Assembly: GCA_964342815.1 (NCBI GenBank)
Contig: CAYFHS010000008.1
Coordinates: 32,001-96,000 of the forward strand
From: an uncultured archaeon
GTDB taxonomy: Archaea > Thermoplasmatota > Penumbrarchaeia > JASLWR01
Reading direction: 5' to 3'
Length of the DNA stretch: 64,000 bases
The notes beneath the pieces were generated by a model that was not told the DNA's origin, made no database searches, and worked only from the letters and a program-made list of their open reading frames with translations. The position numbers were made by a program, and so were the translations under genes. Below are positions 34,122 to 43,998 of the stretch, in pieces. Within the stretch, counting starts at the first letter, position 1. Each line of letters starts with the position of its first letter.

Positions 34122-35135
34122 ATGATGAAAGTAAAGCAGGACGGGATGACCAGGGACATGAAAAGCCTGTGGTACGAGGCAGATAAGAACCAGATATGCT
34201 ATATTGACCAGAGAGCTTTACCTTTCGATTTTCATATTTACGTTGCCACCACGCTCGAGGATAATGCTTTTGCCATAAAAAATATGGTGGTGAGAGGGGC
34301 TCCTGCTATTGGAATCAGCGGAGCATGGGCGCTATACCAGGCAAAAATGAACGGAATTGATCTGAAAACTGCGGCAGAGGTTATCATGGGAACCAGGCCC
34401 ACCGCCCGCGATCTTTTTTATGCTGTTGAGAAGGTTCTGGAAGCTGAGAAGAACGGAAGGAACATCTGTGAATTTTGCCGCGAGCTTGAAAGGGAAATTA
34501 TATCCAGATGCAGACGAATAGGTGAACATGGTGAAAAATTGATCACTGAAGGGTGCGGTATTCTGACCCACTGCAACGCCGGCGCTCTCGCAACCGTGGA
34601 CTGGGGAACAGCTCTTGCACCCATGAGAATGGCTCATAACGCTGGTAAGAAATTTATGGTATATGTGGATGAGACCCGGCCCCGGATGCAGGGTGCTAGA
34701 TTGACGGCATGGGAGCTGGGCATGGAGGGAATAATGCACACGGTAATAGCGGACAATGCTGCTGGTTTTCTCATGAGCAGGGGTAAAATCGATCTAGTTA
34801 TCACCGGTGCAGATAGGATCACGTCGAAGGGTTACGTGGCAAACAAAATAGGGACTTACGAAAAAGCGGTCCTCGCCAGAGTGAACGGAATACCTTTTTA
34901 CGTCGCAGCACCCCGAAGCACTTTCGATTTTTCAATAGAGCACGGTGACGATATACCCATTGAGATCAGGGATGAAGCGGAAATAACCTTTTTGGGGGAA
35001 CAGAGGGTGGCGGCAGAGGGGTCGTCCGCATACAATCCGGCCTTCGACGTGACCCCGCCGGAGTATATTACGGGTTTTATAACGGAAAAGGGGATACTGG
35101 AGGTCGGGGGAATTGATATCATGAGGGAGGGATAA
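34122..35135 (+). CDS. mtnA: S-methyl-5-thioribose-1-phosphate isomerase (eIF2B-alpha-like family)
   Basis: MVVRGAPAIG, TRPTA, LTHCNAGALAT, DETRP, GADRI, NKIGTY, NPAFDVTP. Confidence 0.9.
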   Translation: MMKVKQDGMTRDMKSLWYEADKNQICYIDQRALPFDFHIYVATTLEDNAFAIKNMVVRGAPAIGISGAWALYQAKMNGIDLKTAAEVIMGTRPTARDLFYAVEKVLEAEKNGRNICEFCRELEREIISRCRRIGEHGEKLITEGCGILTHCNAGALATVDWGTALAPMRMAHNAGKKFMVYVDETRPRMQGARLTAWELGMEGIMHTVIADNAAGFLMSRGKIDLVITGADRITSKGYVANKIGTYEKAVLARVNGIPFYVAAPRSTFDFSIEHGDDIPIEIRDEAEITFLGEQRVAAEGSSAYNPAFDVTPPEYITGFITEKGILEVGGIDIMREG

Positions 35136-35422
35136 GTGTGGTTTTATGGATAAGCGGCGGGAAAATTAGTGGAATACTTTAGAAAGGCTAGAAAACGCTC
35201 CCCCAGGATCATCGTACATCTTGCATGGGGGCATCCGGTTACAAATAGTCAAGCATGCCCCACCGGCGGTTTTCCAGCCTGCTTTGTGGTGGTTGCAGAA
35301 TTGAAAATTATATAAAATCCCATTGATCTTCACATTTTTTGCCGAATATAGTTTACAATTTTTATATTATTTGTCAAATATAACCGACAATTATAAAAAT
35401 AAGTCATTCGATATATAGGATT

Positions 35423-36697
35423 ATGCTTGAAATACTACATGATTGGAATCCGTGGTGGTCTCGGAAAAACTCCGTGGATAGATTCGCTGGAAAAGAAAGA
35501 CCAAAGTATCTTGCACCATTACTGGATTTAATAGACAAGAAACATGTTATTTCCGTCGTTGGTATCAGAAGATGCGGAAAAACGACATTGCTATATCAGG
35601 TAATAAAGCATTTACTCCAAACACACAATCCGGAAAATATAATCTATCTGAACATGGACGACGAACGCCTGGTGGGTCTTGAACAACCACTTGAAATGCT
35701 TTTACAAGAATACAAACGAAGTACCGAAACCAACGGGAAGAAAACCTATATCTTTCTCGATGAAGTCCAAAATATAATCGCATGGGAAAAGTGGGTCAAG
35801 AGATATTACGATCAGAAGAAAGAATACAAATTCATTGTCTCGGGGTCCTCCTCCTCGCTTCTCGGTTCCGATTATTCATCACTACTTACCGGTAGGAACA
35901 TAACCATTGAAATCTTTCCACTTACTTTCGAAGAGTATCTCGCTTTTAACGGCTTTGATTTTTCAATGGGAGATATTAAAGCTATCTGGACAAAGAACCG
36001 CAAACTGGAAGACCGGATAATATATCATCTGGAAAGATATATGAAAACGGGGGGTTTCCCTGAAGTGGTTCTCGGCCATGGAGGGCACAAACTCCTTGAG
36101 CAATACTTTTCCGACATTCTATACAGGGATATAATAAAAAGGCACAAGGTCAGACATCCCGATAAACTGGAGCTTCTTGCAGTCTTCGCAATGAGAAATA
36201 TTTCAAACCTGCTATCTTTGAGAAAGATCAGCCGTGTGACAGGCCTGAGTGTTGACACTGTAAAGGAATATATAGGGTACCTGGAGGAAGCGTATTTGCT
36301 CTTCACCAGTCGAAATTTTACGAGATCCGCCGTGGATTCACTGAGACAGGCCAGCCCGATAAAGATCTATTGTAACGATGTGGGCATGGCAAATTCGCTG
36401 CTGCTCGAACCCATGAGAAATCTCGGCAGCATGGCTGAAAACCTGGCCGCCCAGAAGGTGAAATACGAATGGGGGCAGTGTTTCTATTGGAGGGATACAA
36501 AGGAAATCGATATTGTCGTTCCCAAAAACAGGAGCGCCTATCAGGTTACCTATGGTCCCATAAAAACGCGCGAGATGGAAAACTTTTCAAAATTCCCTTA
36601 CAAGGATTTCAAAAAAAAGTTGATCAGTTATGATGTATATGAACCTCTGAACAGTATTCCCATAATACCTTTGTGGACATTTTTACTCCGGAAATGA
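35423..36697 (+). CDS. AAA-family ATPase with DUF4143-type C-terminus (COG1373-like)
   Basis: NPWW, GIRRCGKTT, FLDEVQ, SGSSS, LTGR, GGFPE, KIY..DVG, AEN, EIDIV. Confidence 0.88.
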   Translation: MLEILHDWNPWWSRKNSVDRFAGKERPKYLAPLLDLIDKKHVISVVGIRRCGKTTLLYQVIKHLLQTHNPENIIYLNMDDERLVGLEQPLEMLLQEYKRSTETNGKKTYIFLDEVQNIIAWEKWVKRYYDQKKEYKFIVSGSSSSLLGSDYSSLLTGRNITIEIFPLTFEEYLAFNGFDFSMGDIKAIWTKNRKLEDRIIYHLERYMKTGGFPEVVLGHGGHKLLEQYFSDILYRDIIKRHKVRHPDKLELLAVFAMRNISNLLSLRKISRVTGLSVDTVKEYIGYLEEAYLLFTSRNFTRSAVDSLRQASPIKIYCNDVGMANSLLLEPMRNLGSMAENLAAQKVKYEWGQCFYWRDTKEIDIVVPKNRSAYQVTYGPIKTREMENFSKFPYKDFKKKLISYDVYEPLNSIPIIPLWTFLLRK

Positions 36698-36801
36698 TTT
36701 TACGGGGTCGCCGGTCTACCCAGGGCATCGATTTTTTTATACTCTTACACTGATGCACATTCTCCCAGACAAACTCCGTCTGGCTAAACGGGGGTTTTCT
36801 G

Positions 36802-37197
36802 TTGTTTCCTGCTGATGAAGAATTTTTAGAAAGAAATTATTATATGTTATTAAGAGAATGTCAAACATCGTTACAAAAGGGCTGTCTGACGGGAAAGAAC
36901 TACACCGAAGTACTCGACTGTGAAAGACACTTTGGATTTGCAGGCCCACAGAGACATTACTTTGCTCGGATCGCCAACCGCTGCTCGTACGTCCTCCATG
37001 AAACGGAATCTGTTCCGTTTCATCCGAGTGGTGCAGAGCACCCGAGGAAGGTAAGCGCCGGAGGCGTATGCGACGTCAGCCGCTATTTTGGGGTAAAGCC
37101 CTTTCCTAAAGGGCTTGCGGGCATCCACCTGTTCCTCGGTGAGTATTACAGGGATACGGGCCACCTTGAAGTTGTTGAAGAAGTTGGAGGTAAATAA
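36802..37197 (+). pseudogene. Remnant of a TPR gene 3' end, interrupted by a hairpin-rich in-frame insertion
   Basis: IANRCSYVL and IHLFLGEYYRDT match the C-terminus of 40115..42814 but are separated by 38 unrelated codons. The upstream part shows no clear homology. Confidence 0.7.
36998..37116. mobile_element. Small palindromic insertion (MITE/REP-like), net +114 nt
   Basis: Perfect 11-bp hairpin ATGAAACGGAA-TCTG-TTCCGTTTCAT at the left end and 9-bp hairpin AAGCCCTTT-CCT-AAAGGGCTT at the right end. It is absent from the paralogous copies. Confidence 0.55.
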
Positions 37198-38414
37198 TGC
37201 TGTTTGAAAAAATTAATTCCCTTGATGAGCTGCAGCCCATCATCGAACTTTATTATCGCGCCGTTCAAGCGGGGAATTATAATGAGGCTAAAAATCTATA
37301 CCGCGACAAATTAAGAGTGATATTATTTTTTCAGTTCGGAGCTTATTCGACTTTGATAGAAATAAATACCGCAATGTTTGAAAATGGCGATTTTACCAAA
37401 CCATTTTTGGAAAACAATTCAAGTATAACAATGCTCTTAAATGATACCGCAAATTGTTTCTCACTCTCCGGTCATCCACGACGTGCCATCCCTGTTTTTG
37501 ATCAAGCAAAGAGACATGCAGAGAAAATATATAATAAGAAAAATGTTGCCATCTGCCTCGGTAATCTCGCCACTCAACAGTTAAACCTTGCCGATCTGGA
37601 ATCCGCCGAGTTCAACCTACGGCGACAAATCAAGATTGCAAAAGAGATTCGAGATCTATTCAATGATGCGAACGGCCATACTGAAGCGGGCAGATTATTA
37701 TTATTCTGTGGAAATTTTGATACATCGGAACATGATTTGAATGAAGCTATCAAACTATGGGAAATACAAGACCATACACAAATGATAGGTGTCTCATGGT
37801 CCTACCGCTCCCTCCGTGCTCTTATTATGGCCGATGCTATGGAAGCTTTGAAATTTGCGGCCAAAGCACTCGAATTTGCAAAAGAGGGCGAAGAAACCGA
37901 TGGGAGAACCACGAGAGATTTTATTGTTGCGAATTACTACATAGGAGCTTCCTACGTTGCGATGAAAGACGTAAAAAATGCCGAACCACCACTGAACTTC
38001 GCCATCACCGAATGCCGAAAGATCAACCTCGTCGAACTCGAAACCCCCATCCTCCTCGAACTCGCCAAACTCCGCCATCTCCAGAAGAAAGAAGATGAAT
38101 CCCTCTCCCTCGCCACTGAAGCCCACACCATCGCCAACCGCTGCTCGTACGTACTCCAGCAGGCCGACATCGAGCAGTTCCTGGGCGAGTTCTATCTAGA
38201 TCAGGGCGACATAGAAAAAGCCAGGAAGTACCTTGAGGATTGTATAGAGCACTGCACCCATTGTTGGCGGTATAGTGAAGGTGAGCCTGACTTTGACTAT
38301 GTAAGGAAGGAGGATGACTTTTATTATGTTAAGAAGGAGGAGAAGTGGTGGTACAGACCGAGGTGGGAAAAGGCTAATAAATTACTTAAAGAGTTGGAGG
38401 TAAAAAATGGTTGA
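37197..38414 (+). CDS. Stand-alone TPR protein homologous to the sensor region of the neighbouring STAND protein
   Basis: IIELYY..G.Y.EA..LYRD.L, SAEFN, IGASY..M.D...AE..LNFA.TECRK.NL and IANRCSYVLQQADI are all shared with the last ~390 aa of 40115..42814. GGAGGT RBS and TAATG overlap with the upstream remnant. Confidence 0.85.
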   Translation: MLFEKINSLDELQPIIELYYRAVQAGNYNEAKNLYRDKLRVILFFQFGAYSTLIEINTAMFENGDFTKPFLENNSSITMLLNDTANCFSLSGHPRRAIPVFDQAKRHAEKIYNKKNVAICLGNLATQQLNLADLESAEFNLRRQIKIAKEIRDLFNDANGHTEAGRLLLFCGNFDTSEHDLNEAIKLWEIQDHTQMIGVSWSYRSLRALIMADAMEALKFAAKALEFAKEGEETDGRTTRDFIVANYYIGASYVAMKDVKNAEPPLNFAITECRKINLVELETPILLELAKLRHLQKKEDESLSLATEAHTIANRCSYVLQQADIEQFLGEFYLDQGDIEKARKYLEDCIEHCTHCWRYSEGEPDFDYVRKEDDFYYVKKEEKWWYRPRWEKANKLLKELEVKNG

Positions 38415-40113
38415 CCTATCAAGATTTCAAATTCCTCCTCCTTCACATTGGCAAGAGTTTGAATCTATTTGCTGTGATTTATGGAGAGAGATTTGGAAAG
38501 ACCCTAATGCCGTATTACATGGGAGAAGGGGGCAGGCCCAACAGGGTGTTGATGCCTATGGACAACCTGATAAAGGACGAAAATGGGCAGCAGTTCAATG
38601 TAAAGGTAAAGATAACTATTCTGAAAAAACACTGACTGAGGAAGATGTAACAAAAGAAGTGGACAATGCAAAGAAATTCAGTCCTAAATTGTCCGAATTT
38701 ATTATTGCCACATCTGGGCAAAGGGATGCGAGTATCCAGAAGTTGGTTCGAGAGATTTCTCAGAAGAACCTAAATGACGGGTTGTTTTCGGTTCATGTTT
38801 GGTTTTGGGATGATATTATAGGTAAAATGGGGGAATTCCCTAACGTGATAGAAAAGCATATTCCAAAAGAAATTATCGAGGTTAGATCTAGTGAAACGAA
38901 AGGAAAGAATTGCGAAGATAAATCATTTCATTCACCTCGCGATTTAAAATATAATTTTCCAGAGAAAATCCAAACGGAAAAGGGAGATTTACTCAGTTCT
39001 AACGAGATTATCCATGAAAAATCTAACAAATACAATATTTTTGAAATAAATTCGGACCTTCTTAAATGGAAAGACATTCCTTCTGAGATATTGTCATATG
39101 AAAGCGGAACAATATCAATTTGGGTTGAAGTGAAAGAAGAACACTTAACAAAAGGGATGGTGAATAAAGGAAGATTTATCATTAGTCATTCAACAAGTAA
39201 ACAAAAGAACGAATTTGGATTTTACCCAAATACCTTTTCTTTAAAAAGGAATGAAACGGCTGAACGAGTATTTTGGGAATTTGTCTGGAGTGATAATAAG
39301 AAAAGAAATACCATTCCAAGTGAACCATCTTTAAACATAAAAGCGGATTGGCATCTCTTTTCAATATCCTGGTCAAAAAGGAGGAATTCAGTAAAGTTCT
39401 ACATTAACGGAAAACCACAAAATGGAGAAAAAACACAAGACAACTGGCCGTACGCTGATAACACCGGAATTATTTTCATAGGTAGATGGATTCGTCCAAA
39501 TAAAAAATCTTATTTTAATAGTAGAATTGGCCCATATATTATTTATAACAAAGCAATTACAATTGAGGAAATTGACCGGTTCTATCAATTATTAAAACAA
39601 ATTCTATCAAAATCTCTCATAAATATCCCAATAATACACAAACAAAATGATTTTCCAGAAATGGTTGAAATTAAGCACGGAATGAAAGAATCATTCTTAA
39701 TAAATATTTTAATGAAAAAATTAACATTAAAAGCTAGAATAAATTTACACCGGGAAGCGGGGAATGCTCACTTATTGATTATCCGTGTGAATAATATTCT
39801 CCTCAATAGATGTTATATTATGAACAAGAGTGAAATGAAGCGTTTTCCGAAAAAACCTGAAGGTGAAGCATGGTTCGACCGAGAAATCAAAGCTTGGCAT
39901 TTGTGCTATAGTCCTGATTTTCAGTCAAACTATAGGGATAAAAATTATGCAGTAATCGATGATGATCCATATGAATTTGAATTTGACCTATCAGTAATTA
40001 AACCCGATGATAATAATCAATATTTAATAGAATTCGAACATAGTGGATTGACTGGAGGTAACGCATATAGGAATCCAGTGGTTATCCGAGATATAAAAGT
40101 AGAGGGATTCTGA
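38407..40113 (+). CDS. Mrr-like PD-(D/E/Q)xK restriction-endonuclease domain fused to a LamG/concanavalin-like domain and an unknown C-terminal domain
   Basis: PPPSHWQEFESICCDLW..GRRGQAQQGVDAYG..VQCK nuclease; GTISIWV..WHLFSISW..VKFYINGK..FNSRIG LamG pattern. No signal peptide. AT-rich. Confidence 0.75.
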   Translation: MVDLSRFQIPPPSHWQEFESICCDLWREIWKDPNAVLHGRRGQAQQGVDAYGQPDKGRKWAAVQCKGKDNYSEKTLTEEDVTKEVDNAKKFSPKLSEFIIATSGQRDASIQKLVREISQKNLNDGLFSVHVWFWDDIIGKMGEFPNVIEKHIPKEIIEVRSSETKGKNCEDKSFHSPRDLKYNFPEKIQTEKGDLLSSNEIIHEKSNKYNIFEINSDLLKWKDIPSEILSYESGTISIWVEVKEEHLTKGMVNKGRFIISHSTSKQKNEFGFYPNTFSLKRNETAERVFWEFVWSDNKKRNTIPSEPSLNIKADWHLFSISWSKRRNSVKFYINGKPQNGEKTQDNWPYADNTGIIFIGRWIRPNKKSYFNSRIGPYIIYNKAITIEEIDRFYQLLKQILSKSLINIPIIHKQNDFPEMVEIKHGMKESFLINILMKKLTLKARINLHREAGNAHLLIIRVNNILLNRCYIMNKSEMKRFPKKPEGEAWFDREIKAWHLCYSPDFQSNYRDKNYAVIDDDPYEFEFDLSVIKPDDNNQYLIEFEHSGLTGGNAYRNPVVIRDIKVEGF

Positions 40114-40114
40114 A

Positions 40115-42814
40115 ATGGAAAAAAGCCGAGATATCCCCGCAGATGTCCTCGACAAATTACTCGTAGACGCTCATTTCAGATGTGCCATTTGTCCCGAGCA
40201 TAGAGATATCAGAAATATTCATCACATCGTACCATTCCGCAAGAACGGACCAAATTCTGAAAGCAACCTGATCGTGGTATGCCCCAATTGTCATGAAAGC
40301 ATTCACCGAAATCCAAGAGTCTATACGAAAAAACGAGTGAAAATGGCTAAACAGAAATGGATTGATATTTGCTCGAAATCATCTTTATCATTGCAAGAGA
40401 AAATTGCCCAATCTCCTGGAATCGAGCTTGAAAAAAAATCCCCCCTCATCTTCATCCCTCACCCATACCCCGAGGCGCCAAACTTCACCGGCAGGAAAAA
40501 GGAGCGGGGGGCCATGCTTACCAAGTGGCTCTTGGAGGATACGGAGCATCCACTGTTATCTATGGTAGCGATTGGAGGAATGGGGAAGAGCGCCTTGACG
40601 TGGAGGTGGCTGCAGGAGGATGTTATAGGGAAGGGTGTGGAGTTTGATGGAATTGTTTGGTGGAGCTTTTATGAAAGAGAAGCTACTTTTCAAGCATTTA
40701 TCAACGAAATGATAGGTATCTTATTTCCAGAAAAGGAAAAGGAACTTCTGCAAAGGTCAGACAGGGAAAAGATAGATCTCATTTTGCTAGAATTCACTAG
40801 AAATAATTTTCTTATAGTTTTCGATGGTTTCGAAAGGACATTGCGGGCTTATGCTTTAGCGGGTTTATCCGTATGTTACATTGGCGATGAATATCAAAAA
40901 GGTATAGGTGAGAAATTTCGTCAATGCCTTGATCTAAACTTATCTCAGTTCATTCGTTCATTGACAAATCCTCAATGCAAGACAAAAATGATAATGACCA
41001 CTCGATTGCATCCGCTCGATCTAAGAGGACTTATCGGAGTTCGGGAGGAAGAATTAACGAAAATAGACTCTAATGAGGCAGTTGAATTTTTTCACCGCCA
41101 GGGGGTGAAGGGTTCTGCACCTGAGATAAGACAAGCGTGTGCGAAATATGATTTTCTCCCGTTATGTTTACGTCTATTGTCAGGCGTACTTATCACATCT
41201 CAGAAGTATAAAGGTGATATCAAATACGTCAAGGAGATACCCGATCTGGTTTTAACCGATTCTGATGAGTATTACAAGGATTCTAAAAAGTTCGAACATA
41301 TCCTCCAGTTCTCGTATGACAAATTACCCGAAGAGGATAAGGCATTGATATCTGGCATTGCTGCATTCAGATCACCCATGGAATTCGAGGTATTGCGAAC
41401 CATATTCGGGAACGATGGGGATGAGGATACTTTCCGTGGGAAATTGGAGCCTCTGGAAAGAAGGGGATTACTGTTCAATGATATTGAAAAGGATTGTTAT
41501 GACCTCCATCCCATAGTACGAAGATACTGTTATGGACGATTAACGGCTCCGAAGGAAACACATGAGAGGATACGCTTTTATTTTAATAGAAAAGTGAAAG
41601 ATAAATTTGGTGAACTAGTAATTCCACAAAAAAAGTGGCTGATAACACCTGAAAAGGGAAAAGTTGAATCTACGCAAGAAATAGAGTTGGTGATTGAATT
41701 ATATCATCATACTATAAAGACAGGTCGTTATGATGAAGCATGGAAGTTATACAGAGATCGACTTTTAATAGCTGTTTATTACCATTTAAGAGATTTTAAC
41801 AAACAAATCGAATGTTTAACGGCATTATTTGGAGTTGATAGTGAACTTCCTAAACTGAAGAAAGGATCTTATATAGCTCATTGTTGTTATGAGCTTGCAA
41901 ATGCCTATTCAACATCAGGTAAACCCATTGAAGCAGCAAAACTCTACATGAAAGCATCAAGATTAGCAAAAAGGATGAAACAACAACGATATATTGGTAG
42001 GGCTTTAGTAAATCTTGCTAAAAGAATGATTGATATAGGCGATTTTAAATCTGCCGAATTCAATATAACAAAAATGATTAAAATTTCAAAAATTATTAAT
42101 ATGAAATTTGACGAAGCGTATGGCCATCGCTTATTGAGTATATTACATATAAATTGTGCTGAATACGAAAAATCTATAAAAGAAGCGGACAAAGTTTTAA
42201 AATTGGTAGAGGATGAAGCCCCACATCAAATTGTTACGATTCATTATTACCAAGCCCTCCGAGCTCTCCTTATGAACCAACCTAAAAAAGCTGTTAAAAC
42301 TGCAAATGACGCGCTTATACTTGCGAAAAAATGGGAAGAGAATGAATATCAAGTTGCTAGTGATTTCATTTGGGGTCACAAGCTCATTGGTGCCTCATAT
42401 TTAGTAATGAATGACACAAAGGAAGCTGAATCTCACCTTAATTTTGCATTAACTGAATGTCGTAAGTATAATCTTATTAAAATCGAAGCAGTAGTATTAT
42501 TAGAACTTTCAAGATTGAATCATCTACTAAGTAATGAAAAAGAATCTTTAAATCTTGCCACCGAAGCCCTTGAGATCGCCAACCGCTGCTCATACGTACT
42601 CCAGCAAGCCGACATCCACCTGTTTCTCGGCGAGTACTACAGGGATACGGACGACCTTGAACTTGCGAGGGAGCACGCGGGGTTGGCGAAGCTCAGGAGT
42701 CATCAGATGGTGGATGTTGAGACGGGGGATTATATTACGAAGGACGAAGGGACAAAGTGGAAGTACAAGCCGTGCTATGATAAGGCCAAAGCTCTTTTGG
42801 ATACCTTATCTTAA
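40115..42814 (+). CDS. HNH nuclease - STAND (NB-ARC-like) NTPase - TPR protein (Avs/NLR-like)
   Basis: CAIC..NIHHI..N...NLIVVCPNCH..IH; NFTGR; Walker A GGMGKS; Walker B FLIVFDG; MTTR; LPLCLRL; YDLHPIVR; C-terminal TPRs. Confidence 0.9.
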   Translation: MEKSRDIPADVLDKLLVDAHFRCAICPEHRDIRNIHHIVPFRKNGPNSESNLIVVCPNCHESIHRNPRVYTKKRVKMAKQKWIDICSKSSLSLQEKIAQSPGIELEKKSPLIFIPHPYPEAPNFTGRKKERGAMLTKWLLEDTEHPLLSMVAIGGMGKSALTWRWLQEDVIGKGVEFDGIVWWSFYEREATFQAFINEMIGILFPEKEKELLQRSDREKIDLILLEFTRNNFLIVFDGFERTLRAYALAGLSVCYIGDEYQKGIGEKFRQCLDLNLSQFIRSLTNPQCKTKMIMTTRLHPLDLRGLIGVREEELTKIDSNEAVEFFHRQGVKGSAPEIRQACAKYDFLPLCLRLLSGVLITSQKYKGDIKYVKEIPDLVLTDSDEYYKDSKKFEHILQFSYDKLPEEDKALISGIAAFRSPMEFEVLRTIFGNDGDEDTFRGKLEPLERRGLLFNDIEKDCYDLHPIVRRYCYGRLTAPKETHERIRFYFNRKVKDKFGELVIPQKKWLITPEKGKVESTQEIELVIELYHHTIKTGRYDEAWKLYRDRLLIAVYYHLRDFNKQIECLTALFGVDSELPKLKKGSYIAHCCYELANAYSTSGKPIEAAKLYMKASRLAKRMKQQRYIGRALVNLAKRMIDIGDFKSAEFNITKMIKISKIINMKFDEAYGHRLLSILHINCAEYEKSIKEADKVLKLVEDEAPHQIVTIHYYQALRALLMNQPKKAVKTANDALILAKKWEENEYQVASDFIWGHKLIGASYLVMNDTKEAESHLNFALTECRKYNLIKIEAVVLLELSRLNHLLSNEKESLNLATEALEIANRCSYVLQQADIHLFLGEYYRDTDDLELAREHAGLAKLRSHQMVDVETGDYITKDEGTKWKYKPCYDKAKALLDTLS

Positions 42815-43059
42815 CTCATCGGTCTCCTGATAATCGTAATATCTCGTTTACAATAAATCCATCGCCCTAATAAATGCAGAACCCTATTTCTCTTTCACCT
42901 GCCCCACAGTTCTTGAATACAACCACAACAAATCATCTCTTGACCCACCATAAAAAATTACAAATTTCTACATCAAAGCTCCTTTTCTCATTTCCGTAAT
43001 ACAAAAACAATATCTATTCGGAATTGGTGTGTTAAAAAAAATCATATCCCTCCAACATC

Positions 43060-43998
43060 TCACCCAATCAATCTTTCTCTCATCTCCCTCGCAGTGGAAT
43101 ACGGATCTCTTTCTTTACTGATAATCCCCTCAAGTATATCTTGGTAACGCCCCTGCCTCTTTGCATCTTCGATGATAAATTCAGTCACCTCATCCCTCAA
43201 TAACTCCAAAAATTCCCGCTCGGTCCTCTCCCTGTTACAGATCTCGAGATTCCCGCTTGACCGCAAATAATCCATGTGGTTCTCGATCATATCGGCTATT
43301 TCCCCAATACCCGTACCGTCCCGGGCCACTGCCTTTAAAACCGGTGGCTTCCATTCATTCTTGTATGAACCAAGCTCGAGCATGGTTTCAAGTTCCAGCT
43401 TTGTCCTGTCAGCCCCGTCCCGGTCGGCCTTGTTCACCACGAAGATATTTCCGATTTCCAGTATCCCCGCCTTGGACGCTTGTATGTCATCCCCGGTTCC
43501 CGGTATCTCCACAACCACTGTGGTGTGTGCCGAGCCGGCTATATCCACTTCCGCCTGCCCCGCACCCACAGTTTCCACCAGAATTATCTCCTTACCAAAG
43601 GCATCCATGACCTTGATAATATCGTTGGTGGAGCGTGCGAGTCCACCCAGTTTTCCCCTGGTTCCCATGCTCCTGATGAATATTTCTCGGTCGAGAGCTA
43701 TCTTCGACATCCTGATACGGTCCCCCAGCAGCGCTCCGCCGGTGAATGGTGACGTAGGATCCACGGCAATTATTCCCACCGTTCGTTCCAGTTTTCGGTA
43801 TTCGAGAGCCAATTTTTCAACAAGAGTGCTCTTTCCGGCACCCGGAGGACCAGTAATTCCTATGACATGAGCTCTACCGGTATGAGGGTAAATAAGGGCA
43901 AGCGCTTTCTTTGCATCCTTAGAAAAATTCTCGACGTGGCTCATCAACCTTGCCATGGCACGCCTGTCGCCTTTCAGTAATCTATCTACGATCTCCAT
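43060..43998 (-). CDS. meaB: Acyl-CoA mutase-associated GTPase MeaB
   Basis: GITGPPGAGKST, DPTSPFTGGALLGDRIRM, RSMGTRG, ETVGAGQ, NKAD. Confidence 0.95.
   Translation of the reverse strand: MEIVDRLLKGDRRAMARLMSHVENFSKDAKKALALIYPHTGRAHVIGITGPPGAGKSTLVEKLALEYRKLERTVGIIAVDPTSPFTGGALLGDRIRMSKIALDREIFIRSMGTRGKLGGLARSTNDIIKVMDAFGKEIILVETVGAGQAEVDIAGSAHTTVVVEIPGTGDDIQASKAGILEIGNIFVVNKADRDGADRTKLELETMLELGSYKNEWKPPVLKAVARDGTGIGEIADMIENHMDYLRSSGNLEICNRERTEREFLELLRDEVTEFIIEDAKRQGRYQDILEGIISKERDPYSTAREMRERLIG

Follow-up and report, generated by a model that had tools for sequence, protein, structure and literature searches.

Introduction

Plant and fungal NLRs are STAND immune receptors that lie in tandem arrays and become mosaic through unequal crossing-over and gene conversion between paralogues. 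Exchange in eukaryotic NLRs mostly involves either the repeat region or entire paralogues. The bacterial NLR-related antiviral STAND proteins (Avs) reportedly share a three-part organization, in which a STAND NTPase is preceded by an N-terminal nuclease effector and followed by a C-terminal TPR sensor. Fungal examples of exchange among clustered NLR paralogues have been described (PMC13449251, PMC12222747). In the CDI/Rhs polymorphic toxins a nucleotide-conserved junction motif (VENN, PxxxxDPxGL) is present both in the full-length gene and in nearby fragments (Poole et al. 2011, PMC3150448; Zhang et al. 2012, PMC3482391), while in Type I restriction-modification systems the specificity modules of HsdS swap partners at flanking conserved sequences (Furuta et al. 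2011, PMC3077401). Finally, insertion with long target duplication has been described for restriction-modification gene units (Nobusato et al. 2000, as cited in Furuta et al. 2010, PMC2853133), and no archaeal case passed the repeat-flanked screen of PMC2853133.

Organization of the defence island

The window, by which we mean the whole 64,000-nucleotide stretch of DNA analysed, derives from a marine Thermoplasmatota archaeon and carries a defence island between mtnA and meaB that is centred on one large NB-ARC + TPR STAND (NLR-like) gene family. Its features are as follows.

35331-35392, + strand: two copies of the motif TTTGYCRAATATA...ACAA, just 3' of mtnA (direct-repeat family D4)
35423-36697, + strand: AAA_14/DUF4143 ATPase gene, island member (Pfam AAA_14 1.8e-39, DUF4143 5e-20)
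36802-37197, + strand: remnant ORF, 131 aa, with anchor copy 1, insertion, partial B-type tail and tail end
36970-36998, + strand: anchor copy 1, in the remnant ORF
36999-37112, + strand: in-frame insertion of 114 nt in the remnant (repeat-family spacing 1160 vs 1046)
37197-38414, + strand: orphan TPR gene, 405 aa (40% amino acid identity to STAND residues 516-898)
37197-38017, + strand: O-type TPR body of the orphan gene
38018-38129, + strand: X_up segment of the orphan gene, GC3-rich, 5' of anchor copy 2
38130-38158, + strand: anchor copy 2, in the orphan gene
38159-38414, + strand: A-type tail of the orphan gene with a CxxHCxHC motif, 3' of anchor copy 2
38130-42574, + strand: 4,445-bp block between anchor copies 2 and 3, comprising tail A, the Mrr-LamG gene and the HNH-NB-ARC-TPR body (repeat spacing 4445)
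38407-40113, + strand: gene for a 568-aa protein with an Mrr-like (PD-(D/E)xK) nuclease, a LamG/ConA-like domain (Pfam Laminin_G_3 3.7e-11) and an extra C-terminal region (Mrr-LamG gene)
40115-42814, + strand: HNH-NB-ARC-TPR STAND (NLR-like) gene, 899 aa (Pfam HNH, NB-ARC, TPR_12), with HNH effector (codons 1-160), diverged NBD and S-type TPR body, breakpoint at 42554-42557, anchor copy 3 and B-type tail
42575-42603, + strand: anchor copy 3, in the STAND gene

The STAND protein combines an effector, a P-loop STAND NTPase and a TPR arm: HNH is matched at residues 23-65 (2.3e-08) and NB-ARC at residues 135-237 (26.3 bits against a Pfam cut-off of 23.5), and the arm matches TPR_12 and TPR_2. Full-length relatives number 539 (E<=0.001), and relatives carry TIR, DUF4062 or HTH where the window gene carries HNH. 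Like Avs, the gene has a three-part layout, within a family that uses many alternative N-terminal effectors (HNH, TIR, DUF4062). Unlike Avs, it belongs to an archaeal host and matches no Avs model in PADLOC, which returned weak HNH-domain matches alone (E 5e-05 to 5e-03). The Mrr-LamG gene is translationally coupled at both ends, and its relatives, elsewhere fused to TPR, TIR or SIR2, match only its N-terminal ~150 aa (55-59% identity). The AAA_14/DUF4143 ATPase corresponds to PADLOC candidate PDC-S01 (5.2e-95), and its gene was not found between mtnA and meaB of the sister species (genome G001). Pfam searches of all island proteins identified no encoded recombinase, reverse transcriptase, integrase or transposase.

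The start of the orphan gene overlaps the remnant stop and its end overlaps the start of the Mrr-LamG gene. The original prediction held that remnant and orphan share gene ends that feed the next gene, and both junctions are present: AGTTGGAGGTAAATAATG leads from the remnant into the orphan ATG, and AGTTGGAGGTAAAAAATG from the orphan into the Mrr-LamG ATG. The remnant's tail end supplies the orphan RBS, with a Shine-Dalgarno-like GGAGGT ahead of the ATG. The expected coincidence between the start of the orphan and that of the STAND TPR region was likewise observed, orphan residue 5 pairing with STAND residue 516, the first TPR helix. The AlphaFold2 model of the orphan is a complete TPR solenoid (pLDDT 95), and its body is 91% identical in nucleotides to that on a sister-species contig (L105) with a dN/dS of 0.21, indicating purifying selection. 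Judged from these sequence features, the orphan is probably an expressed TPR-only protein and not a silent cassette.

The DNA upstream of the anchors had been described as strongly diverged. This applies to the orphan and STAND genes, for which nucleotide identity rises from 45-55% upstream to 80-85% around the anchor, and at the 5' edge of the TPR region is again 45-55%, with a third-position identity of 0.30-0.36. It does not apply to the remnant. Rather than being a diverged TPR unit, this ORF begins with 168 nt of unrelated DNA, and family homology opens exactly at the anchor (36965-36970). Anchor copy 1 is followed by the 114-nt insertion, then by 58 nt from the start of tail B and, past an internal deletion of ~175 nt, by the ~30 nt that end a tail; BLASTP to STAND shows a 38-residue gap. 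These pieces are 90-91% identical to the G001 remnant. The remnant is a decayed leftover that was truncated where the anchor begins.

Conservation of the anchor

The 29-nt anchor, ATCGCCAACCGCTGCTC(G/A)TACGT(C/A)CTCCA, is present in three copies at the positions originally noted (chance expectation 0 in 100 shuffles), and a search of the 4.35-Mb genome for more found none elsewhere. All three copies are read in frame as I-A-N-R-C-S-Y-V-L and code for the best-conserved motif of the family, EALxIA[N/D]RCxYxLxQADI; the 22 residues around the anchor hold 14 of the 46 invariant or nearly invariant columns in a 27-member TPR-arm alignment. In the model the anchor spans the last part of one helix, the turn behind it and the first part of the following helix, in the penultimate TPR.

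The conservation extends to the DNA. ATC GCC AAC CGC TGC is retained in all G000 and G001 copies and in five of the six tandem paralogues of another Thermoplasmata genome (G014), the sixth having CGA in place of CGC. Within the Thermoplasmata branch the anchor patch and part of the surrounding 3' end are similar at the DNA level and GC3-rich even within AT-rich genes (8/10 codons in the STAND anchor end in G or C, against a gene-body GC3 of 0.22), whereas in distant relatives with the same motif and gene architecture the synonymous sites of the motif vary freely. Copies 2 and 3 are identical at 28/29 anchor positions and ~88% identical over 65 nt, and differ in a 5-nt patch (CACACC vs CTTGAG) immediately 5' of the anchor. 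Inverted repeats or notable structure were not found at the anchors, and Rfam searches gave no match for the anchor or for the 114-nt insertion of the remnant.

Breakpoints and mosaic genes

A switch from AT-rich to GC-richer sequence had been noted in the STAND gene at about 42555, and a maximum-likelihood change-point places it at nt 42557, with a GC3 of 0.22 before and 0.68 after (permutation p<=0.001). The same jump from an AT-rich body to a GC3-rich 3' end is seen in P0002, g14a and g14b; the high GC3 of family 3' ends could result from recurrent conversion, from repair biased towards GC or from codon selection where residues are conserved.

Max-chi2 analysis locates partner changes next to the anchor in two further genes. 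In the G001 remnant, orphan-like sequence gives way to STAND-like sequence at 13-19 nt 5' of the anchor (p=0.0002), and P0002 turns from STAND-like to orphan-like just 3' of it (p=0.0002). P0002 is a mosaic, with an HNH module as in STAND (82-88% nucleotide identity; dS 0.6-1.1 over codons 1-160 and saturated beyond) and tail A as in the orphan (89% nucleotide identity, dS 0.5). STAND and P0002 are sisters on the TPR-body tree (100/99) with different tails, and across this tree tail types A and B are scattered, with 5 changes required to account for the 5 rows that have tail A. All four combinations of upstream type (X or S) and tail type (A or B) exist, and among the six G014 paralogues third-position identity is 0.88-0.92 at the anchor vs 0.3-0.5 in the bodies. 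The breakpoints, the four combinations and the uncoupling of tails from the body tree bear out the predicted recombination at the anchor; divergence is not uniform across it. The partners changed there are TPR bodies and C-terminal tails, plus the whole 4.4-kb gene block, and none of the observed changes moved a TPR body onto another NTPase domain. Exchange was observed between lineages only (dS about 0.3), not within populations.

Sister-species alleles and the inter-anchor block

The block is flanked by direct repeats (38109-38194 and 42554-42640) that have a single counterpart in L105 and in G001. The L105 allele beside meaB is one uninterrupted gene composed of an orphan-type TPR body, the anchor and a STAND-type tail B, and thus the kind of chimeric allele that had been predicted, at the same chromosomal site. 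Subtraction of this allele from the window leaves exactly the 4,445-bp inter-anchor block, and the genes flanking the block are shown to be in-frame reciprocal chimeras, one joining the orphan body to tail A and the other the HNH-STAND body to tail B. L105 is a single metagenome contig that begins within the gene, at orphan codon 37; it is 98% identical to G001 downstream and may be a strain-level assembly chimera at the shared X_up-anchor segment. The G001-type allele (mtnA, a 124-aa ORF that is the remnant, meaB) also occurs in other assemblies of this species and on a 73-kb contig without gaps.

The two sides of the anchor differ in age. STAND tail B is 86% identical to that of G001/L105 with a dS of 0.74, compared with 0.65-1.14 for flanking core genes and 0.29 for the orphan body, showing that the tail B beside meaB dates to the species split and that the orphan body was exchanged later. 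Because several Thermoplasmata genomes share X_up and the anchor at 75-90% identity, nucleotide similarity alone is insufficient for positional orthology and the case rests on synteny together with dS. No alignment with the sister species is obtained for the final ~30 nt of the STAND gene or for the intergenic DNA between that gene and meaB, thus further, unexplained rearrangements took place.

All three anchor junctions are bridged by independent assemblies and contigs, and the three-anchor arrangement is not an assembly artefact. In the contigs of four other marine runs the island has the same structure as in the window; variant junctions were absent from these contigs, at ~2-3x depth and with rare variants being lost from contigs.

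Origin of the mosaic locus

The explanation we favour, with a probability of roughly two in three, is that the anchor is an evolutionary joint at which bodies, tails and the 4.4-kb block were joined by ordinary homologous recombination. Such recombination is most likely responsible for the joining, and not a dedicated machinery, the absence of which we infer. General homologous recombination or gene conversion would cross over repeatedly at the anchor because it is the sole near-identical stretch among otherwise saturated paralogues, and these crossovers would link varied upstream parts (effector, NTPase, TPR body) to tail types A or B. The block may have entered when a circular or duplicated donor recombined with the resident anchor by a single crossover, or through insertion with long target duplication; its insertion is somewhat preferred over the reverse event, an inter-anchor deletion in the sister lineage.

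Insertion with long target duplication, as outlined in the citing paper, resembles this locus in having a defence block free of integrase and transposase, direct repeats of tens of bases and a single copy in the block-less relative. Unlike the outlined cases, the target here lies in frame inside coding sequence, so that insertion splits one gene into two intact chimeric genes. The repeats here are also only ~88% alike with different flanks, which fits homologous recombination between two family members better than single-target copying. The locus shares with plant and fungal NLR clusters the STAND architecture and mosaic evolution among paralogues, but its exchange is centred on one short 3' motif, joins tails to bodies and also crosses species by horizontal transfer. 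As in HsdS domain movement, specificity modules of defence proteins are re-paired via recombination at conserved sequence, although this sequence is on the 3' side only and not, as in HsdS, on both sides.

Plain tandem duplication and decay would instead make the units old paralogues whose anchor identity stems from purifying selection and a preference for C-ending codons, with no recombination. Across phyla the motif hardly varies in protein sequence, it is encoded mostly by NNC codons, the usual optimal class, and elsewhere the decay of such genes commonly leaves C-terminal remnants. Nevertheless, this account is improbable given the sharp STAND change-point, the contrast in dS (0.29 vs 0.74) on either side of one anchor, the significant breakpoints with all four upstream/tail combinations, the scattered tail types and a sister allele from which exactly the inter-anchor block is missing. 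In addition, distant relatives use many synonymous codons for the motif, thus protein selection does not fix the DNA.

Slightly less probable still is the programmed reservoir of the original prediction, in which orphan and remnant are stored TPR modules swapped into STAND to alter immune specificity, in the manner of pilin/vls or orphan toxin tips. The anchor is common to all three units, the orphan matches the full TPR arm, and a natural allele pairs the orphan body with a STAND-type tail. However, in pilE/pilS- and vlsE-type systems conserved sequence lies on both sides of the cassette, while here the TPR region has no nucleotide homology at its 5' edge (~50% identity at the TPR start), which leaves a cassette swap with one homology arm. 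The anchors are direct repeats, so that a single crossover between them deletes the block, removing the STAND body and LamG gene, instead of swapping. The genome holds one orphan and one decayed fragment, with no array of orphan modules found; the orphan is constrained and carries an ATG and a Shine-Dalgarno-like site of its own; the island encodes no recombinase or reverse transcriptase; and exchange was seen between lineages only. The proposal that a reservoir re-programs the receptor is therefore not upheld.

The accompanying analogy with orphan modules of polymorphic toxins fared better in part. The junction is nucleotide-conserved in the main gene and the orphans (three anchors, with breakpoints there) and, as with orphan cdiA-CT/cdiI and Rhs-CT modules, forms a homology patch for exchange, displaced fragments staying beside the gene. 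In place of an array of promoter- and start-less orphans, there is a single complete, translatable and selectively constrained 405-aa ORF. Furthermore, the polarity is mirrored relative to CDI/Rhs, with the constant part 3' and the variable part 5', so the leftovers lie upstream; the parts re-paired are receptor bodies, C-terminal tails and whole neighbour genes in place of toxin tips and immunity genes; and the protein concerned is a cytoplasmic STAND ATPase of an archaeal host.

That the anchor is a nucleic-acid element inside coding sequence (a target of a recombinase or nuclease, a structured RNA or a regulatory site) is the least probable explanation, for although genomes from different Thermoplasmata families conserve its synonymous positions and the HNH nuclease of the STAND protein could in principle nick DNA, the anchors show no inverted repeat, notable structure or Rfam match, no recombinase gene is nearby, and synonymous sites are free to vary in the rest of the family.

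Other sequence elements

The 114-nt insertion in the remnant begins with a perfect 11-bp hairpin and ends with a 9-bp hairpin, with a predicted fold of -51 kcal/mol (z -2.5) and no second copy in genome G000. Compared with the sister species, the island has its left edge at ~35385, marked by the second TTTGYCRAATATA...ACAA copy; both copies are retained in the G001 alignment and homology stops right past the second, the pair being a candidate promoter or operator.

Anchor copies and gene organization of the island

The 29-nt anchor is present at 36970, 38130 and 42575 in the window (remnant, orphan and STAND, respectively), on the + strand in each case, with zero copies expected by chance, and no further copy was found anywhere in the 4.35-Mb genome. 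All three copies are read in frame as IANRCSYVL. The genes concerned are:

35423-36697: AAA_14/DUF4143 ATPase gene
36802-37197: remnant ORF, 131 aa
37197-38414: orphan, TPR-only, 405 aa
38407-40113: Mrr-like nuclease-LamG protein (Mrr-LamG)
40115-42814: HNH-NB-ARC-TPR STAND protein

The four genes from the remnant to STAND are tightly packed, with stops and starts that overlap or abut, and the same packing runs all along an array of family paralogues in G014, another Thermoplasmata genome. The gene ends AGTTGGAGGTAAA(T/A)AATG common to the remnant and the orphan encode homologous C-termini (...LLKELE...), and the codons at this point include a GGAGGT that serves the translationally coupled gene downstream. 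The orphan shares 40% identity with STAND residues 516-898, while in the codon alignment the nucleotide identity of the two genes is 45-55% in the TPR body and 80-85% around the anchor. Within STAND the best change-point in GC3 lies at nt 42557, where it rises from 0.22 to 0.68 (p<=0.001), and nowhere in the island is AT content higher than in the block between anchors 2 and 3. The original prediction of three anchor copies, of strongly diverged TPR-coding DNA upstream of them, of an abrupt compositional switch in STAND and of shared gene ends in the remnant and orphan thus agrees with the data. The remnant, which had been counted as a third TPR unit, is not one, as it has no TPR homology upstream of its anchor.

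The anchor encodes a protein motif of the family

The STAND protein belongs to a large family (539 hits) whose N-terminal domains are interchangeable (HNH, TIR, DUF4062 and others) and whose members occur in archaea as well as in many bacterial phyla. When 27 TPR arms were aligned, the densest cluster of invariant columns was E-A-L-x-I-A-[N/D]-R-C-x-Y-x-L-x-Q-A-D-I, corresponding to the anchor and its flanks. In the AlphaFold2 model (pLDDT 95) the orphan forms a complete TPR solenoid. The anchor is predicted to span the end of one helix (299-316), a turn and the start of the next (319-335), and a putative small β unit and a terminal helix come after it. Across 49 family members of many phyla the protein motif is almost unchanged while synonymous positions vary freely, and there is therefore no DNA-level constraint with the family as such; selection on the anchor DNA throughout the family was rejected, since distant members code the motif by many synonymous codons. 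Conservation at the DNA level is confined to the Thermoplasmata branch, where ATC GCC AAC CGC TGC is shared by the three copies of the window, by the same-genus genome G001 and by 5/6 tandem paralogues of G014, the sixth having CGA in place of CGC. An Rfam scan of 35100-43100 gave no matches, no inverted repeats were found at the anchors, and a search of viral contigs for the anchor pattern found none.

Allelic states in the sister species

G001, a same-genus Thermoplasmatota MAG from the eastern tropical North Pacific whose flanks are 78-85% identical to the window, carries between mtnA and meaB only a 124-aa ORF. This ORF matches first the GC-rich segment of the orphan (38018-38194, 83%) and then the 3' end of STAND (42554-42786, 86%), with the switch point 13-19 nt 5' of the anchor (max-chi2, p=0.0002). 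Other assemblies of the same species also carry the short-remnant allele, as does a 73-kb contig without gaps. In one population an allele of this kind (L118) has a CAG>TAG nonsense polymorphism right after the anchor, making it a pseudogene there, so that the remnant is not under selection in that population.

The chimeric allele that the original prediction proposed to look for in metagenomes was found on a sister-species contig, L105, which is 98% identical to G001 downstream. Here an orphan-type TPR body (91% nucleotide identity to 37305-38017) is followed by one anchor, the STAND-type tail (tail B) and meaB, and the window exceeds this allele by exactly 4,445 bp, the distance from anchor 2 to anchor 3. 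L105 is a single contig that starts inside the gene, and a chimera at the shared segment is possible; every other sister-species contig retrieved in a search for sequence upstream of its allele has the short remnant instead. No alignment with the sister species was obtained for the last 30 nt of STAND or for the spacer between it and meaB.

The two partners can be dated. Between the window and the sister species, dS is 0.65-1.14 for seven flanking core genes and 0.74 for tail B, which lies in their range, so that the tail next to meaB is resident; the orphan body, at dS 0.29, was therefore exchanged after the species split. The tail is old and the body young, and with a dN/dS of 0.21 the orphan body is under purifying selection.

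Mosaic genes across the family

The closest HNH relative, P0002 from another metagenome, shares its first 160 codons with STAND (dS 0.6-1.1), the two being saturated beyond, and shares with the orphan an A-type tail (89% nucleotide identity, dS 0.5). Taken with the composition of L105, this pattern makes it look, from sequence comparison, as if an L105-like and a P0002-like gene had crossed over at the anchor, with the orphan and STAND as the reciprocal products. Both upstream types occur with both tail types, so that all four pairings are represented. In the TPR-body tree, tails C and D of distant members track the tree; in the Thermoplasmata branch tails A and B are fully interspersed, and STAND and P0002 are well-supported sisters with different tails. 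The six back-to-back G014 paralogues (tail A in one, B-type in five) reach third-position identities of 0.88-0.92 in the anchor segment, compared with 0.3-0.5 in their NTPase and TPR bodies. P0002 and two G014 paralogues (g14a and g14b) likewise pass abruptly from an AT-rich body to a 3' end with high GC3.

Separately, a second mosaic border is seen at STAND codon ~160, the junction of HNH module and P-loop (window 40115-40594 versus L090 759-1327), and the homology of STAND with P0002 begins exactly at the start codon.

Probable recombination at the anchor

Ordinary homologous recombination or gene conversion at the anchor is the simplest reading. The anchor would be the sole usable homology between the saturated paralogues. 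A resident gene consisting of the orphan body, anchor and tail B would have met a donor, circular or duplicated, with an anchor, tail A, Mrr-LamG and an HNH-NBD segment with the S-type TPR body of STAND, and a single crossover between them would yield exactly the observed order together with both in-frame chimeras. In the reverse event, deletion between two direct anchor copies would produce the L105 state. Insertion is favoured over deletion by about 60:40, because of the block's AT content, the highest in the island, and because P0002 shows that a gene running from HNH to tail A occurs naturally.

The remnant points to an earlier round of the same kind of event, as it was cut at the anchor and then decayed. 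It is a third copy of a B-type tail, severed at the 5' edge of the anchor, and consists of the anchor, an in-frame insertion, 58 nt of tail and the tail end, the deletion and the insertion having come later.

36999-37112: insertion in remnant, 114 nt, in frame, open

A perfect 11-bp hairpin marks the 5' end of the insertion and a 9-bp hairpin its 3' end. The genome contains it only once, by which a MITE was ruled out, and Rfam gave no match.

A more far-reaching and, in our judgment, unlikely reading treats anchor-to-anchor blocks as integrase-free cassettes, in which a tail is followed by cargo genes and by the body of the STAND gene after them. Within a tandem array, two anchors would recombine and set free a circle with one anchor; once transferred to another genome, the circle would integrate in frame into a STAND gene already present there, at its anchor. 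The conserved 3' motif would then double as an attachment site through which new defence genes are recruited and sensor bodies change tails, and each capture would leave two chimeric receptors, both intact.

The original prediction went further and saw a reservoir of alternative TPR sensor modules exchanged at the anchors. Recombination at the anchor is supported by the breakpoints and L105; a programmed reservoir is not supported. The TPR start lacks a second homology arm, the anchor repeats are direct, the genome holds just one orphan and one dead fragment, the island proteins include no recombinase or reverse transcriptase, and the datable exchanges fall between lineages; in addition the orphan appears to be a complete, constrained and translatable gene. 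A diversity-generating retroelement with template and variable repeats was rejected, there being no reverse transcriptase among the island proteins and no adenine specificity in the differences between copies.

An assembly chimera in the window was likewise rejected, as each of the three junctions is spanned by independent contigs. Over 34500-43600, contigs of four other marine runs have the same structure with no joints in the island, at a depth of 2-3x and as contigs only, where rare recombinants could go unseen.

Relation to known systems

How prokaryotic NLR-like receptors diversify is largely unknown. Sequence exchange is known among the clustered NLR paralogues of plants and fungi, and N-terminal effector swapping has been documented by comparative genomics; we know of no documented recombination joint of defined position in prokaryotic NLR-like receptors. 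Our literature search found no description of such a joint, or of an orphan-sensor/anchor model, in prokaryotic STAND genes, although this is not proof of absence. The locus offers a joint resolved to the base pair, two or three allelic states in sister species, and dated partners. It indicates that the insertion point of a defence block can lie within a coding sequence without loss of the open reading frame in either resulting gene. Should this be general, the conserved 3' motif of STAND genes would mark where defence genes are predictably captured, an aid to interpreting defence islands and to the search for new cargo genes.

The orphan toxin tips of CDI/Rhs systems follow a similar logic (PMC3150448, PMC3482391), but the arrangement in the window is mirrored, with the constant part 3', and the orphan is probably expressed. 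The 'insertion with long target duplication' of restriction-modification units leaves a similar footprint (PMC2853133), whereas the joint in the window lies inside coding sequence and in frame.

Additional observations

The G014 paralogues are a natural place to look for anchor-by-anchor excision.

G014:C271 18973-36620 (L023-L025; JAEHCK010000010.1): six-STAND array with overlapping stops/starts and differing N-terminal domains

In a family member on an ANME-1 contig (L083 1266-2123) an in-frame internal deletion joins NTPase residue ~357 to TPR residue ~757, with loss of most of the sensor arm. In Halobacteriota contigs (L096, L097-L099), TPR-only ORFs of the family (388-390 aa, preceded by in-frame stops) stand ahead of a small gene and an nSTAND3 NTPase gene. 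These contigs, and two with the related TPR-only protein P0150, each start 60-95 nt upstream of the TPR ORF, where there may be a repeat or variable junction. C-terminal remnants of the family occur in several phyla and, together with the TPR-only ORFs beside other STAND genes, fit turnover and decay in defence islands.

The nuclease domain in the N-terminal ~150 aa of Mrr-LamG (38407-38860) has counterparts of 55-59% identity in other metagenomic proteins, where it is joined to TPR arrays, TIR or SIR2 domains. In viral contigs only the N-terminal nuclease domain has relatives (42-47% identity). For the LamG and C-terminal parts there are almost no relatives overall. Complex prediction for the orphan TPR and Mrr-LamG scored 0.00, which carries no verdict either way.

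A second genomic context, or a rearranged allele, of the block seems to exist. Contigs from three ENA assemblies, including a Tara Oceans record (L100-L102), are 99.8-99.9% identical to 38117-39373, a stretch with anchor 2, tail A and, from its start codon, 322 codons of Mrr-LamG, and leave the window at 39373 for a truncated α-glucan-phosphorylase-like gene absent from the window's genome. Breaks near 39315-39337 are also present in Logan unitigs from another run. To judge by record names and nearly identical ends, L100-L102 may be re-assemblies of one low-depth sample. Their starts 7-13 nt 5' of anchor 2 were excluded as evidence, as were the ends of L116, L117, L120 and L122 in or beside the anchor, which may reflect nearby strain differences in the sister species such as the CAG/TAG site.

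Finally, a repeated motif lies downstream of mtnA.

35331-35392 (window); L020 10780-10816: repeated motif TTTGYCRAATATA..ACAA, two copies

It is kept in the sister species, directly before the first gene in each case (AAA_14 here, the remnant ORF there), and is a candidate archaeal promoter or operator.
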